From a virus (Duplodnaviria; Heunggongvirae; Uroviricota; Caudoviricetes), in the IMG/VR virus record IMGVR_UViG_2563366929_000003: DNA of 6,921 bases. One strand, given 5' to 3'. The notes under the pieces are model-generated. The model made no database searches, was not told the DNA's origin, and saw only the letters and a list, made by a program, of their open reading frames with translations. This document shows positions 53 to 6,790 of the stretch, in pieces (within the stretch, counting starts at the first letter, position 1; every line of letters starts with the position of its first letter). The translations under genes and the position numbers were made by a program.

Positions 53-89
53 CCCGAAAAAGAGCCAGTCAGTTGCTTAACTGACTGGC
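53..89 (-). terminator. Putative intrinsic terminator for the minus-strand two-gene cassette: perfect 11-bp stem (64-74 gccagtcagtt / 79-89 aactgactggc) with 4-nt loop, followed on the minus strand by a T-rich run (rc of 53-63 = TCTTTTTCGGG)
   Basis: Read directly: perfect inverted repeat with gctt loop overlapping the stop codon (77-79) of the minus-strand ORF; a T-run follows in the minus orientation only. Confidence 0.5.
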
Positions 90-388
90 ATTACTGCTGT
101 AGCAAGATTTTTCCTGTATTCGTAAAATGATAACTCTCCTGATTTGAATCCTTTTAAGGTGGCTTCTATAAGGCATTTATTTTTTGAAAATCTTACATTT
201 ACAACCTTACCCTGTCCTTTTATTAAAACCGTATTATCGTTTTCAAGAACAAGATGAATATTCTCTGTGGCTAAATAGTAAATGTAATGTGAGACATTGT
301 GACGTTTTAGTTCAGAATAAAACCAGTGATAGTTTAAATTATTTCGCACTTTATCGAATATTTGTTTAAAAATGGCAATCTGAGCCAT
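77..388 (-). CDS. Hypothetical small protein (~103 aa), AT-rich accessory (moron-like) gene of unknown function; second gene of the minus-strand cassette
   Basis: ORF track 77..403 (108 aa). The first ATG (403) has no purine-rich Shine-Dalgarno upstream (upstream is a C7 tract), whereas the second in-frame ATG (386-388) is preceded by GAAGG at a 7-nt spacing, so the start at 388 is preferred. Region about 120-400 is far more AT-rich than the structural genes. I recognise no family. Confidence 0.5.
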
Positions 389-445
389 TGTAGTACCTTC
401 CATGTGATATGAGGGGGGGTAGTCTGCACGATTATCTAAATTGCT

Positions 446-679
446 TCAATCTGGTCTGACCTGTTTTCTGAGCAATTCAGTAATGTCACTCTTTTCTTTG
501 TTTGCTTCAGGCGAAACTCTTTTTTCTGAGCACAGTCTCCGGCGGCAGGCTTCAATGACCCAGGCTGAGAAATTCCCGGACCCTTTTTGAACAAGAGCGA
601 TGTTAATTTGTTCAATCATTTGGTTAGGAAAGCGGATGTTGCGGGTTGTTGTTCTGCGGGTTCTGTTCTTCGTTGACAT
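446..679 (-). CDS. Small basic DNA-binding protein, ribbon-helix-helix-like (77 aa); resembles the small YnfO/YlcI-type proteins that E. coli cryptic prophages encode next to their Nu1 homologues (recollection, unverified)
   Basis: ORF track 446..679. Basic N-terminal arm (MSTKNRTRRTTTR), then a predicted beta-strand (NIRFP), helix (NQMIEQINIALVQ), a G-x-S/N turn (KGSGN) and second helix (FSAWVIEACRRRL), the typical RHH (Arc/MetJ/CopG-like) layout. Sits divergently just upstream of cos and the Nu1 gene. Confidence 0.65.
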   Translation of the reverse strand: MSTKNRTRRTTTRNIRFPNQMIEQINIALVQKGSGNFSAWVIEACRRRLCSEKRVSPEANKEKSDITELLRKQVRPD

Positions 680-878
680 GAGGTTGCCCTGTATTCAGTG
701 TCGCTGATTTGTATTGTCTGAAGTTGTTTTTACGTTAGGTTGATGCAGATCAATTAATACGATACCTGCGTCATAATTGATTATTTGACGTGGTTTGATG
801 GCCTCCACGCACGTTGTGATATGTAGATGATAATCATTATCGCTTTACGGGTCCTTTCCGGTGATCCGACAGGTTACG

Positions 879-890
879 GGGCGGCGACCT
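879..890. other. cosN: cosN: 12-nt cohesive-end sequence GGGCGGCGACCT (terminase nicking site) of a lambda/21-type cos phage
   Basis: Read directly: 847-878 (acgggtcctttccggtgatccgacaggttacg) matches the lambda right-end sequence as I recall it, followed by gggcggcgacct, then cgcggtttttcactatttatgaaaatttt, nearly identical to the lambda left end. Nu1/A homologues lie immediately downstream. Confidence 0.85.
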
Positions 891-1067: not shown

Positions 1068-1616
1068 ATGAAGGTTAATAAAAAGAGGCTTGCCGAAATT
1101 TTTAACGTGGACCCGCGGACGATTGAACGCTGGCAGTCTCAGGGACTCCCTTGCGCCTCCAAAGGTAGTAAGGGCATTGAATCTGTATTTGATACTGCCA
1201 TGGCAATTCAGTGGTATGCGCAGAGGGAAACTGATATCGAAAACGAAAAGCTCCGCAAAGAACTGGCCGATTTGCGTGCGGCAGCGGAGTCAGATTTACA
1301 ACCCGGCACCATTGACTATGAACGCTACCGGCTCACAAAAGCGCAGGCAGATGCGCAGGAACTGAAAAATGCCCGTGAAGACGGAGTGGTGCTGGAAACT
1401 GAACTGTTTACCTTCATTCTGCAACGTGTGGCACAGGAGATTTCGGGGATACTTGTGCGTGTGCCGTTGACATTACAGCGTAAATATCCGGACATTTCAC
1501 CATCACACCTTGATGTGGTGAAAACTGAAATCGCGAAAGCCTCCAATGTTGCAGCTAAGGCCGGTGAAAACGTGGGCGGGTGGATCGATGATTTCAGACG
1601 CGCAGAAGGCAGCTAA
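1068..1616 (+). CDS. nu1: Terminase small subunit (lambda Nu1-like / phage 21 gp1-like), N-terminal winged-HTH DNA-binding domain
   Basis: ORF track 1068..1616 (182 aa). N-terminus [26 protein letters not shown]...[17 protein letters not shown] closely parallels lambda Nu1 (MEVNKKQLADIF...TIQNWQEQG...WYAERDAEIENEKLRRE) by recollection. First gene after cos; length matches Nu1 (181 aa). Confidence 0.9.
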
Positions 1617-3706: not shown

Positions 3707-5295
3707 AACGAACGCCTGTCCTGATTGATGTGAACGGCGTTCCGCTTCGTGAGAGTCTCAGCTACAACGGGGGCGGTGCAGGATTTGGCGGGCAAATGGC
3801 TGAGTGGTTGCCACCGGCGCAGAGTGCCGATGCGGCCCTGCTGCCCGCGTTGCGTCTGGGGAATGCCCGGGCAGATGATCTGGTGCGCAATAACGGAATA
3901 GCGGCCAATGCGGTGGCCCTGCATAAGGATCACATTGTCGGGCATATGTTTCTGATCAGCTACCGTCCGAACTGGCGCTGGCTGGGGATGCGGGAGACCG
4001 CGGCAAAAAGCTTTGTCGATGAGGTGGAGGCGGCCTGGTCAGAATACGCCGAAGGGATGTTTGGCGAGATCGACGTGGAAGGGAAACGCACGTTCACGGA
4101 ATTTATCCGTGAAGGTGTGGGCGTTCATGCGTTTAACGGCGAAATCTTTGTGCAGCCGGTCTGGGATACGGAGAGTACGCAACTGTTTCGTACGCGTTTT
4201 AAAGCCGTGAGTCCGAAACGGGTGGACACGCCAGGACACGGTATCGGGAACCGTTTTCTGCGGGCCGGTGTGGAGGTTGATCGATATGGCCGTGCCGTTG
4301 CGTACCATATCTGTGAGGATGATTTTCCTCGCTCCGGGAGTGGACGATGGGAACGGATCCCGCGTGAACTACCCACCGGGCGTCCGGCCATGCTGCATAT
4401 TTTCGAGCCGGTGGAGGACGGGCAGACCCGTGGGGCTAATCAGTTTTACAGCGTCATGGAACGGCTGAAGATGCTCGATTCCCTGCAGGCAACACAGCTT
4501 CAGTCGGCCATAGTGAAGGCGATGTATGCAGCGACGATTGAAAGTGAACTTGATACCGAAAAGGCCTTTGAATATATCGCCGGCGCGCCACAGGAGCAGA
4601 AGGATAATCCGCTTATTAATATTCTGGAGAAGTTTTCCAGCTGGTATGACACGAATAACGTGACACTGGGCGGTGTCAAAATTCCGCACCTTTTCCCTGG
4701 TGATGATCTGAAACTACAGACTGCGCAGGATTCAGACAATGGATTTTCTGCGCTTGAACAGGCGCTGCTGCGGTATATCGCCGCCGGTCTTGGCGTTTCC
4801 TACGAACAGTTGTCCCGTGATTACTCGAAGGTCAGTTACTCAAGTGCCCGCGCCTCCGCCAATGAGTCGTGGCGCTATTTTATGGGGCGGCGAAAATTTA
4901 TTGCGGCCCGGCTGGCCACGCAGATGTTTTCCTGCTGGCTGGAAGAGGCACTTCTTCGGGGGATTATTCGTCCGCCACGGGCACGTTTTGATTTTTATCA
5001 GGCGCGATCAGCCTGGTCACGGGCAGAGTGGATTGGTGCCGGAAGAATGGCCATTGACGGGCTCAAGGAAGTCCAGGAATCAGTGATGCGCATTGAGGCC
5101 GGACTGAGCACGTATGAGAAAGAGCTGGCGCTGATGGGCGAGGATTATCAGGACATTTTCCGCCAGCAGGTCAGGGAATCTGCTGAGCGGCAAAAAGCCG
5201 GACTCTCACGTCCGGTGTGGATAGCGCAGGCGTATCAGCAGCAGATAGCGGAGAGTCGCAGGCCGGAAGAGGAGACAACACCACGTGAGACGTAA
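3703..5295 (+). CDS. B: Portal protein (lambda gpB-like), 530 aa
   Basis: ORF track 3703..5295. Position between W and the protease gene and size (lambda B is 533 aa) match; ATGA start/stop overlap with W; GGAG in the 3691-3699 region upstream. Confidence 0.88.
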   Translation: MKRTPVLIDVNGVPLRESLSYNGGGAGFGGQMAEWLPPAQSADAALLPALRLGNARADDLVRNNGIAANAVALHKDHIVGHMFLISYRPNWRWLGMRETAAKSFVDEVEAAWSEYAEGMFGEIDVEGKRTFTEFIREGVGVHAFNGEIFVQPVWDTESTQLFRTRFKAVSPKRVDTPGHGIGNRFLRAGVEVDRYGRAVAYHICEDDFPRSGSGRWERIPRELPTGRPAMLHIFEPVEDGQTRGANQFYSVMERLKMLDSLQATQLQSAIVKAMYAATIESELDTEKAFEYIAGAPQEQKDNPLINILEKFSSWYDTNNVTLGGVKIPHLFPGDDLKLQTAQDSDNGFSALEQALLRYIAAGLGVSYEQLSRDYSKVSYSSARASANESWRYFMGRRKFIAARLATQMFSCWLEEALLRGIIRPPRARFDFYQARSAWSRAEWIGAGRMAIDGLKEVQESVMRIEAGLSTYEKELALMGEDYQDIFRQQVRESAERQKAGLSRPVWIAQAYQQQIAESRRPEEETTPRET

Positions 5296-6790
5296 TCTTT
5301 CACACATTATTGCCGCAGCATTCAATGAACCGCTGCTTCTGGAGCCCGCCTATGCGCGGGTTTTCTTTTGCGCGCTCGGGCGCGAGATGGGGGCAGCAAG
5401 TCTTTCGGTACCGCAACAGCAGGTACAGCTTGATGCTCCCGGGATGCTGGCTGAAACGGACGAGTACATGGCCGGAGGTAAACGACCGGCCCGTGTTTAC
5501 CGGGTGGTGAACGGTATTGCGGTACTGCCGGTGACCGGCACGCTGGTGCACCGGCTGGGGGGGATGCGGCCATTTTCCGGAATGACTGGCTATGACGGCA
5601 TTGTCGCCTGTCTTCAGCAGGCAATGGCAGATAGCCAGGTGCGGGGCGTACTGCTGGACATTGACAGTCCGGGCGGGCAGGCCGCCGGCGCGTTTGACTG
5701 CGCTGACATGATTTACCGCCTCCGGCAGCAGAAGCCGGTCTGGGCACTGTGCAATGACACGGCCTGTTCTGCAGCCATGCTGCTGGCGTCGGCCTGCTCC
5801 CGACGGCTGGTTACCCAGACATCCCGTATCGGCTCCATTGGCGTGATGATGAGCCATGTCAGCTATGCCGGTCATCTGGCGCAGGCCGGTGTGGATATCA
5901 CGCTGATTTACTCAGGGGCGCACAAGGTGGATGGCAATCAGTTTGAAGCGTTGCCGGCAGAGGTTCGCCAGGACATGCAGCAGCGGATTGATGCGGCGCG
6001 CCGGATGTTTGCCGAAAAAGTGGCGATGTTTACCGGTCTGTCTGTTGATGCAGTCACGGGAACAGAGGCCGCCGTTTTTGAAGGTCAGTCCGGCATTGAG
6101 GCCGGGCTGGCGGATGAATTAATCAATGCGTCGGATGCCATCAGTGTGATGGCCACGGCGCTGAACAGTAATGTCAGAGGAGGTACTATGCCGCAATTAA
6201 CTGCAACGGAAGCCGCCGCGCAGGAGAACCAGCGAGTGATGGGGATCCTGACATGCCAGGAAGCGAAAGGACGTGAACAGCTTGCCACGATGCTGGCAGG
6301 ACAACAGGGCATGAGCGTTGAACAGGCCCGGGCGATTCTGGCCGCGGCGGCACCGCAGCAGCCGGTGGCATCCGCGCAGAGTGAAGCCGATCGCATTATG
6401 GCGTGTGAAGAAGCGAACGGTCGTGAACAACTGGCGGCAACGCTGGCGGCGATGCCGGAGATGACGGTGGAAAAAGCCCGCCCGATCCTGGCGGCTGCAC
6501 CACTGGCGGATGCCGGGCCCTCGCTTCGTGATCAGATCATGGCACTGGATGAGGCAAAAGGGGCAGAAGCGCAGGCTGAACAACTGGCTGCCTGCCCGGG
6601 AATGACAGTGGAGAGCGCCCGGGCTGTGCTGGCTGCGGGATCAGGTAAGGCAGAACCGGTCTCTGCATCCACAACCGCCCTGTTTGAACATTTCATGGCG
6701 AACCATTCACCGGCAGCGGTACAGGGTGGCGTGGCACAGACGTCAGCAGACGGTGATGCGGACGTGAAAATGCTCATGGCCATGCCATGA
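5285..6790 (+). CDS. C: Prohead protease, S49 peptidase family (lambda gpC-like), with C-terminal scaffold-like repeat domain
   Basis: ORF track 5285..6790 (501 aa), GTG start overlapping the portal stop by 11 nt, GGAG at 5271-5274. N-terminal 300 aa parallel lambda C (AFNEPLLLEPAYARVFFCALG; GIAVLPVTGTLV; MTGYDGI; GAFDCADMI; KPVWAL; SRRLVTQTSRIGSIGVMM; ITLIYSGAHKVDGN) by recollection. Confidence 0.88.
   Translation: MRRNLSHIIAAAFNEPLLLEPAYARVFFCALGREMGAASLSVPQQQVQLDAPGMLAETDEYMAGGKRPARVYRVVNGIAVLPVTGTLVHRLGGMRPFSGMTGYDGIVACLQQAMADSQVRGVLLDIDSPGGQAAGAFDCADMIYRLRQQKPVWALCNDTACSAAMLLASACSRRLVTQTSRIGSIGVMMSHVSYAGHLAQAGVDITLIYSGAHKVDGNQFEALPAEVRQDMQQRIDAARRMFAEKVAMFTGLSVDAVTGTEAAVFEGQSGIEAGLADELINASDAISVMATALNSNVRGGTMPQLTATEAAAQENQRVMGILTCQEAKGREQLATMLAGQQGMSVEQARAILAAAAPQQPVASAQSEADRIMACEEANGREQLAATLAAMPEMTVEKARPILAAAPLADAGPSLRDQIMALDEAKGAEAQAEQLAACPGMTVESARAVLAAGSGKAEPVSASTTALFEHFMANHSPAAVQGGVAQTSADGDADVKMLMAMP
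6188..6790 (+). CDS. nu3: Nested in-frame scaffold protein (lambda Nu3-like), translated from an internal start within the protease gene; 200 aa
   Basis: Read directly: strong Shine-Dalgarno GAGGAGG (6176-6182) 5 nt upstream of an in-frame ATG at 6188 (codon 302 of the protease ORF). The product is Ala/Glu/Gln-rich, low-complexity and repeat-containing, as expected of a scaffold. Lambda has the same C/Nu3 nested arrangement. Confidence 0.6.
   Translation: MPQLTATEAAAQENQRVMGILTCQEAKGREQLATMLAGQQGMSVEQARAILAAAAPQQPVASAQSEADRIMACEEANGREQLAATLAAMPEMTVEKARPILAAAPLADAGPSLRDQIMALDEAKGAEAQAEQLAACPGMTVESARAVLAAGSGKAEPVSASTTALFEHFMANHSPAAVQGGVAQTSADGDADVKMLMAMP
6224..6670 (+). repeat. Three tandem, diverged ~48-53-aa protein-level repeats within the scaffold/Nu3 region (units approx 6224-6382, 6383-6526, 6527-6670)
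   Basis: Read from the translation: ENQRVMGILTCQEAKGREQLATMLAGQQGMSVEQARAILAAAAPQ / EADRIMACEEANGREQLAATLAAMPEMTVEKARPILAAAPLA / RDQIMALDEAKGAEAQAEQLAACPGMTVESARAVLAAGSG. All units are in the same frame with 159- and 144-nt spacing; DNA identity between units is only partial. Confidence 0.7.

Follow-up and report, generated by a model that had tools for sequence, protein, structure and literature searches.

The question raised by this locus is whether two small genes located beside a lambda-type packaging site, on the strand opposite to the late genes, constitute a toxin-antitoxin or defense module or, rather, belong to the ordinary accessory gene complement of lambda-like prophages. The stretch of DNA analyzed here (hereinafter, the window) consists of 6,921 nucleotides from a tailed bacteriophage (Caudoviricetes; IMG/VR record IMGVR_UViG_2563366929_000003).

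Layout of the window

The plus strand of the window carries the start of a late operon of the lambda type, which encodes, in this order, the terminase small subunit Nu1 (the first late-operon gene, 1068..1616; PF07471, E = 1e-80), the terminase large subunit, the head-tail joining protein, the portal and a 501-aa open reading frame (ORF; 5285-6790), the next long one after the portal gene. The cohesive-end sequence of cosN, GGGCGGCGACCT (879..890, plus strand), is recognizable directly and aligns with the right end of lambda; it is preceded by the cosQ-proximal sequence (approximately 843-878). Left of cos are two minus-strand ORFs, 679..446 (77 aa) and 388..77 (103 aa, or 108 aa if translation starts at an alternative ATG at 403), both running opposite to the Nu1/A/W/B/C genes.

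These ORFs, with their coordinates, their orientation against the late operon and their position beside cos, had been described in a first-pass annotation of the window and are confirmed from the sequence. The AT-richness attributed to the region is likewise borne out, with a GC content of 0.31-0.36 over positions 101-500 compared to 0.49-0.65 in the late genes, and we judge that the annotation was right to place the pair among the non-structural accessory cargo of the slot that separates the lysis genes from cos, with transcription running counter to that of the late operon. Both ORFs represent real genes: each shows strong matches to a protein family, the dN/dS values among paralogs of the second one (0.12-0.38) imply that these are maintained as proteins, and the structure of a close homolog of the second protein has been solved.

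The second gene is a DUF1398 gene truncated by IS4

The 103-aa ORF (77..388, minus strand), which the first-pass annotation could not place in any family, matches Pfam family PF07166 (DUF1398) with E = 4.8e-28 and 98.1 bits against a cut-off of 22, as well as phrog_413 with E = 2e-62; the "head protein" label attached to its family is probably wrong. The DUF1398 family, as encountered here, includes YdfO, YbcV, YcgX and lambda p78. The match, however, covers only positions 1-91 of the 119 in the profile, so that the domain is incomplete, whereas the intact allele of the gene scores 144.8 bits. This intact protein is about 80% identical over 135 residues to E. coli YdfO, for which an NMR structure is available (PDB 2HH8; E = 4e-67). 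Its AlphaFold2 (AF2) model has a pLDDT of 48, which is too low for a search by fold, and its predicted secondary structure mixes helices and strands.

The truncation is explained by an insertion sequence. Positions 1-93 of the window reproduce exactly the terminal 93 bp of IS4 (1426 bp, with 18-bp terminal inverted repeats), as found by an exact-string search in the copy that resides in lacY of strain MS20645; in many genomes, the IS4 transposase is annotated at this sequence. This right end of IS4, on the plus strand, includes both the terminal inverted repeat (76-93) and the adjoining 3' end of the transposase gene, that is, its C-terminal codons and the stop codon TAA (78-80). From position 94 onward, the window aligns without a difference to the intact DUF1398 gene of E. 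coli SF-468, which puts the junction at 93/94. In agreement with this placement, all E. coli matches to positions 1-1100 start at position 94, and positions 1-130 otherwise match IS4 copies. Residues 1-98 of the ORF (388..95) are identical to the 136-aa E. coli protein WP_000057035.1, an allele type present in strains such as SF-468, APEC O1 and ATCC 11775, and base 94 together with the IS4 sequence encodes the last five residues, VMPVS, followed by the stop codon (79..77). The 103-aa product is accordingly not a native protein, as had been supposed, but a chimera, in which the C-terminal 38 of the 136 residues, including the most conserved block of the family, are lost.

Judged by its sequence, then, the second gene is a truncated pseudogene disrupted by IS4, and the cassette is unable to work as a pair in this window. 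A search of 5,426 complete E. coli genomes found the IS4/DUF1398 junction in none of them. Since the left edge of the window falls within the element, of which only 93 bp are in view, with the other end and any flanking target-site duplication of 11-13 bp lying outside, the contig was probably broken at a repeat; a junction at a single contig end could, in principle, also be an assembly join.

The same insertion accounts for the hairpin that was taken for the terminator of the cassette. The hairpin itself (64..89, minus strand) is real, with a perfect 11-bp stem, a 4-nt loop, a folding energy of -18.9 kcal/mol (z = -3.1) and a T-run, TCTTTTT, following it on the minus strand. It lies, however, wholly inside the IS4 segment, with its right arm within the terminal inverted repeat, and every E. 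coli homolog of the cassette aligns only from position 94. The hairpin is therefore a part of IS4 and not a terminator belonging to the cassette, and it may serve to stop inward read-through into the element. A seemingly novel 103-aa protein, complete with a terminator, turns out to be a chimeric ORF created at an insertion sequence junction, and the value of this result is mainly corrective.

The first gene is an intact ynfO

The upstream gene (446..679, minus strand; 77 aa) is an intact ynfO. Its product matches PF13132 (DUF3950) with E = 2e-20 and 72.8 bits against a cut-off of 25, and the NCBIfam YlcI/YnfO family NF041551 with 35.2 bits against a cut-off of 30; its sequence is the same as that of WP_001331705.1 from E. 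coli SF-468 (100% identity), and its identity to YnfO of E. coli K-12 is 97%. The DUF3950 family is a narrow one, with no more than 108 matching clusters (at 50% identity) among 1.8 billion proteins. In its members, variable tails follow a conserved N-terminal core of about 50 residues; the protein encoded in the window also has a basic N-terminal arm. In K-12, both ynfO and ydfO are included in the list of uncharacterized genes (the y-ome).

The core displays an Arc-like strand-helix-helix pattern, and the AF2 monomer model (pLDDT 67) shows an extended segment, NIRFP, followed by helices at 19-32 and 37-55. The top structural neighbors of this model identified with Foldseek are nearly all ribbon-helix-helix (RHH) proteins (CdbA, NikR, ParD2, YiiF, MazE9, Arc, VapB and KacA), with local rmsd values of 1.6-2.8 Å, and every one of these matches has E > 1. 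Profile alignment (hhalign) superimposes NIRFP on the NLRWP strand of Arc, albeit with E = 0.01 and a probability of 4%; the hhalign matches to both Arc and Mnt are weak, and a search of the PDB sequences with the YnfO profile yields chance matches only. The proposal that the 77-aa protein belongs to the RHH class holds up in that the model, its neighbors and the alignment with Arc all look RHH-like, but it is statistically insecure on the same three counts. We consider it likely, although not demonstrated, that YnfO adopts an Arc-like RHH fold.

A mosaic boundary passes through the gene. Positions 517-972, which include the sequence for the N-terminal domain of YnfO, the upstream region and cos, are about 93% identical to lambda at the nucleotide level, and left of 517 the window has no nucleotide match to lambda. 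The end of this similarity places a mosaic joint inside ynfO at about codon 54.

Toxin-antitoxin and defense readings

Under the type II toxin-antitoxin reading, YnfO would be an RHH antitoxin whose variable C-terminal tail neutralizes a DUF1398 toxin, the latter being inactivated by IS4 in the window. The gene order and protein sizes fit, with a small DNA-binding protein first and a partner of about 136 aa second; the RHH antitoxins ParD2, MazE9, VapB and KacA are among the structural neighbors of the YnfO model; the YnfO tail belongs to the variable segment that is inherited together with the downstream gene; and insertions often inactivate toxin genes. In addition, in the Qin-type lineage, named after the K-12 prophage, the two genes are neighbors throughout, separated by 57 nt in 77 of the 77 close viral-contig loci. 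This fixed adjacency, however, is limited to a closely related lineage, and common descent suffices to explain it.

Beyond that lineage, the pairing is not obligate. By tblastn, YnfO-like genes are found in 155 phage records compared to 43 for DUF1398. In the Stx phage BP-4795, a DUF3950 gene without a DUF1398 companion lies between Rz and the HNH-TerS-TerL genes; phage 2H10 also has a DUF3950 gene, and the part examined, up to the end of the record, revealed no DUF1398; and phage satellites carry DUF3950 without DUF1398. Conversely, ycgX is a DUF1398 gene that lies beside bluR without a DUF3950 partner. Of the 5426 complete E. coli genomes, 5376 contain DUF1398-like DNA, with ycgX accounting for many of the weaker matches, and 4187 contain ynfO-like DNA. 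In lambda and in the K-12 prophage DLP12, an oppositely oriented gene, ybcW, separates the two genes, and in the window, the two do not overlap.

The proteins themselves point in the same direction. The profile search that had been suggested as a check returns DUF1398 for one protein and DUF3950 for the other, and no toxin family for either; the only family matched by the second protein is DUF1398, which is no recognized toxin fold or family. Among the models of PADLOC-DB v2, nothing significant is found for the two proteins or their K-12 homologs, the best E-values being 0.0068, 0.023 and 0.0012, to unrelated models and with partial coverage. Homology of the second protein to a characterized, non-toxic family had been named as an outcome that would contradict the toxin reading; this outcome is only half realized, the family being a known one but uncharacterized. 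A HEPN nuclease was also considered for DUF1398, given the RHNVSH motif and a match to HEPN_AbiA_CTD, and rejected: the match is below the cut-off and is seen in 4 of the 23 members only, the histidine falls outside the conserved columns, and a mixture of predicted helices and strands is at odds with the all-helical HEPN domains. On this evidence, with the two families separable and DUF1398 placed in no toxin family, we regard a toxin-antitoxin function as highly improbable.

The related possibility that the pair is a prophage-borne anti-phage defense or superinfection-exclusion module draws on the location of the genes in a known accessory slot beside bor-type morons, on their AT-richness and on their antisense orientation relative to the late operon, with plausible expression in the lysogen. 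These features have to be weighed against the lack of significant PADLOC matches for both proteins and the K-12 homologs, the presence of the genes in lambda itself and the broken state of the copy in the window. Furthermore, the literature searched contains no report of toxicity or phage resistance for either gene. We consider a defense function very unlikely, and the corresponding proposal of the first-pass annotation, in either form, is not supported. The locus is ordinary, partly decayed and already known, rather than a new toxin-antitoxin or defense module.

A possible role of YnfO at the packaging boundary

A different reading ties YnfO to the boundary between the packaging site and the late operon rather than to DUF1398, which would be a neighbor without any relation to it; as an RHH protein, YnfO would bind DNA close to cos or influence the transcription that enters the terminase genes. 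A YnfO-family gene is located just before the terminase genes, on the opposite strand, both in phages of the lambda type (with Nu1) and in HK97-like phages with HNH and TerS that lack DUF1398, although their packaging modules are unrelated, and the approximately 200 bp from ynfO to cos are nearly invariant across four elements. PICI-like satellites carry two DUF3950 genes between the integrase gene and the replication operon, and one of these two genes, a complete ORF (P0332, 120 aa), combines a DUF3950 domain with a Terminase_2 N-terminal domain, a copy of the DNA-binding domain of TerS. The latter domain shares 64% identity with the TerS of the neighboring prophage and 53% with that of the satellite itself. 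This fusion hints that the DUF3950 domain may be used for recognition of the packaging site or of late-region DNA. However, the DUF3950 genes of the satellites do not adjoin TerS, and mosaic inheritance alone can explain the conserved position in phages. To our knowledge, no packaging requirement has been established in lambda genetics for the right end between Rz and cos. All things considered, we deem this reading unlikely.

In its strongest form, which we would give little chance, YnfO/YlcI is an overlooked, conserved regulator or DNA-recognition protein of the boundary between the lysis and packaging genes. Such a view is permitted by the position that the gene keeps in lambda-like and HK97-like phages, with or without DUF1398, by the intact but unannotated ORF in the reference genome of lambda, and by the borrowing of the domain by satellites, where it is fused to a copied DNA-binding domain of the helper terminase. 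If correct, it would implicate YnfO/YlcI in cos-proximal DNA recognition, control of late transcripts or interference with packaging, as opposed to the role of a passive moron.

Expression and the preferred reading

The stretch between the start codon of ynfO and cosN (680..878, minus strand) varies hardly at all between the window, lambda, Qin and DLP12, and it presumably holds the promoter and operator of ynfO. It contains a 13-nt inverted repeat (749-761/769-781). A simple scan for sigma-70 promoters on the minus strand upstream of ynfO did not find a consensus promoter, and an Rfam scan of positions 1-1200 gave nothing significant. Between the two genes, there is a 57-nt spacer (389..445, minus strand) with a GGAAGG ribosome-binding site at 401..396.

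Published data on the K-12 and lambda homologs bear on the accessory, non-essential nature of the genes and on their expression on the lysogen side, the expression evidence from K-12 being indirect. PdhR sites and PdhR-dependent expression have been reported around ybcV/ybcW and ynfO/ydfO in K-12; the K-12 ydfO transcript increases approximately 100-fold in the presence of ionic liquid, with no prophage induction reported; and ydfO expression changes upon overexpression of DicC. In lambda, lambdap78 is non-essential, according to both CRISPRi and earlier literature. A link between YdfO overexpression and resistance to oxidative stress was discarded because the source paper concerns YfdO.

The reading that we hold with good confidence is that the locus is an accessory segment of the right arm of a lambda-like E. 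coli prophage, a Qin-type ynfO-ydfO pair in which the second gene is disrupted by IS4. Its mode of action can be outlined as follows. YnfO would be a small, dimeric, Arc-like RHH DNA-binding protein, produced from its own promoter in the conserved region of approximately 200 bp before cos. Transcription from such a promoter would be antisense to the late operon, which fits with moron-type expression of ynfO in the lysogen, and autoregulation by YnfO is probable. The DUF1398 gene, where arranged as in Qin, would be co-transcribed downstream of ynfO, behind its ribosome-binding site; its product would be a non-toxic accessory protein that lytic growth does not require. Of the two proteins, YnfO alone could still be functional in this window.

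The ynfO-ydfO pair is a very common, catalogued and functionally uncharacterized set of accessory (moron-type) genes beside the lambda-like packaging site. A scan of species genomes for DUF1398 returned almost only Escherichia, along with lambda-DNA contamination in unrelated assemblies, and a scan of viral contigs returned near-identical loci only. Given that both families are present in most E. coli genomes and in lambda itself, there is little new in the window. A functional assignment of YnfO or DUF1398 would annotate thousands of prophages, but the window adds no special evidence toward it.

Comparison with known systems

With the Arc/Mnt/CopG-type repressors and RHH antitoxins, YnfO shares the strand-helix-loop-helix arrangement, the NIRFP segment comparable to NLRWP of Arc, the basic N-terminal arm and the small size; it differs from them in that neither its sequence nor its fold model yields a significant score. 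The closest structural reference for the second gene is YdfO (2HH8), a structural-genomics NMR structure of a DUF1398 protein without an assigned function, of which the window copy lacks the portion corresponding to the C-terminal 38 residues.

At the level of gene arrangement, lambda and DLP12 resemble the window in that both families occupy the corresponding slot, flanked by the lysis genes and cos, and run counter to the late genes. The order in DLP12 is borD, ybcV (DUF1398), ybcW on the other strand, ylcI (DUF3950) and nohD. The right end of lambda contains bor, lambdap78 (DUF1398) and lambdap79, which we take, by homology, to be the counterpart of ybcW, as well as an intact 64-aa ORF (48109..48303) that is not annotated in NC_001416 and whose product is identical to K-12 YlcI. 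At the DNA level, these elements and the window share about 93-95% identity over the sequence for the N-terminal domain of YnfO, the upstream region and cos. Unlike the window, both have the short tail of the 64-aa YlcI and the extra, oppositely oriented gene (ybcW/lambdap79) between the genes of the two families; they also carry bor, whereas none is visible in the window, where the intervening IS4 puts it out of view.

The closest relative is the K-12 Qin prophage with its ynfO-ydfO pair (b4533-b1549). Here, nohA is followed by 388 bp containing cos, ynfO (234 nt), a 57-nt spacer and ydfO (411 nt), so that Qin has in common with the window the order nohA(Nu1)-cos-ynfO-ydfO, the gene lengths and the spacer. 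The YnfO proteins are nearly the same, with the identity given above, and the DUF1398 proteins are about 75-80% identical. The difference is that the DUF1398 gene in the window, an allele of the WP_000057035.1 type, is cut after codon 98 by IS4.

The IS4 end and the interrupted DUF1398 gene

The window starts 93 bp inside IS4, as is typical of a short-read contig that ends in a repeat, and the junction between IS4 and the DUF1398 gene is found in none of the 5,426 complete E. coli genomes of the collection. The loop of the IS4 hairpin contains a TTAA palindrome (77-80) that provides stop codons on both strands: the IS4 transposase gene ends with the plus-strand codon (78-80), and the chimeric DUF1398 open reading frame (ORF) ends with the minus-strand codon (79-77).

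DUF1398 proteins are labelled either as "head protein" (phrog_413 and the RefSeq entry for lambdap78, the DUF1398 gene of phage lambda) or as "putative envelope protein". Because the DUF1398 ORF in the window (77-388) lies on the strand opposite to the late operon and lambdap78 is non-essential, these labels look like annotation carry-over rather than evidence.

Two published statements on ydfO, the E. coli K-12 homolog, bear on this family. Overexpression of YdfO has been said to raise resistance to oxidative stress (PMC4077768, citing Wang et al. 2010, PMC3105296). The cited paper reports this resistance for YfdO of prophage CPS-53, and ydfO is not mentioned in its main text; we therefore reject the claim as a mix-up of the gene names YdfO and YfdO. 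The same mix-up has since been carried into a table of a later paper. Additionally, K-12 ydfO has been placed among the genes "essential only by TraDIS" (PMC5821084). The gene is not listed as essential by Keio or PEC, and its homolog in the window tolerates the IS4 insertion; the TraDIS result is likely to be an artefact, arising from mapping or from insertion bias in a gene that is AT-rich and has paralogs.

Mosaic structure of ynfO

A lambdoid mosaic joint is located at position 517, within ynfO (about codon 54), where the conserved N-terminal domain ends, so that the tail of YnfO is inherited with the downstream segment and the putative DNA-binding core with cos. The basic arm of YnfO is encoded by the direct repeat AACCCGCA(N7)AACCCGCA (640-663, minus-strand codons 6-13). 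In the same region, 21 nt, CCCGCAGAACAACAACCCGCA, are invariant at the DNA level, including in the Stx phage BP-4795, despite the unrelated upstream region there; this invariance may reflect simple conservation.

DUF3950 genes in satellites and in phage lambda

PICI-like satellites carry two DUF3950 genes in tandem, at 5001-5363 (protein P0332) and 4590-4772 in loci L085/L086; the satellite locus L089 has a DUF3950 gene at 4714-5103 (protein P0299). In one gene of the tandem pair, the DUF3950 domain is joined to the N-terminal DNA-binding domain of Terminase_2, which here shares 64% identity with TerS of the adjacent prophage. The fusion protein might serve to interfere with packaging or to redirect it.

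The database matches include many of about 3.5 kb, as well as others with "species" labels such as Staphylococcus, Bacillus, Pseudomonas and Flavobacterium. These either share about 76% identity with the query DUF1398, a level equal to that of lambda p78, or are of the YlcI type, and they appear to stem from contamination of assemblies by control DNA of phage lambda.

The lambda reference genome NC_001416 itself contains, between lambdap79 and cos, an intact 64-aa ORF (48109..48303, minus strand) that is annotated in neither NC_001416 nor J02459. Its protein product is identical to YlcI (DUF3950) of E. coli K-12, and its counterpart in the window is 517-679 plus the downstream sequence.
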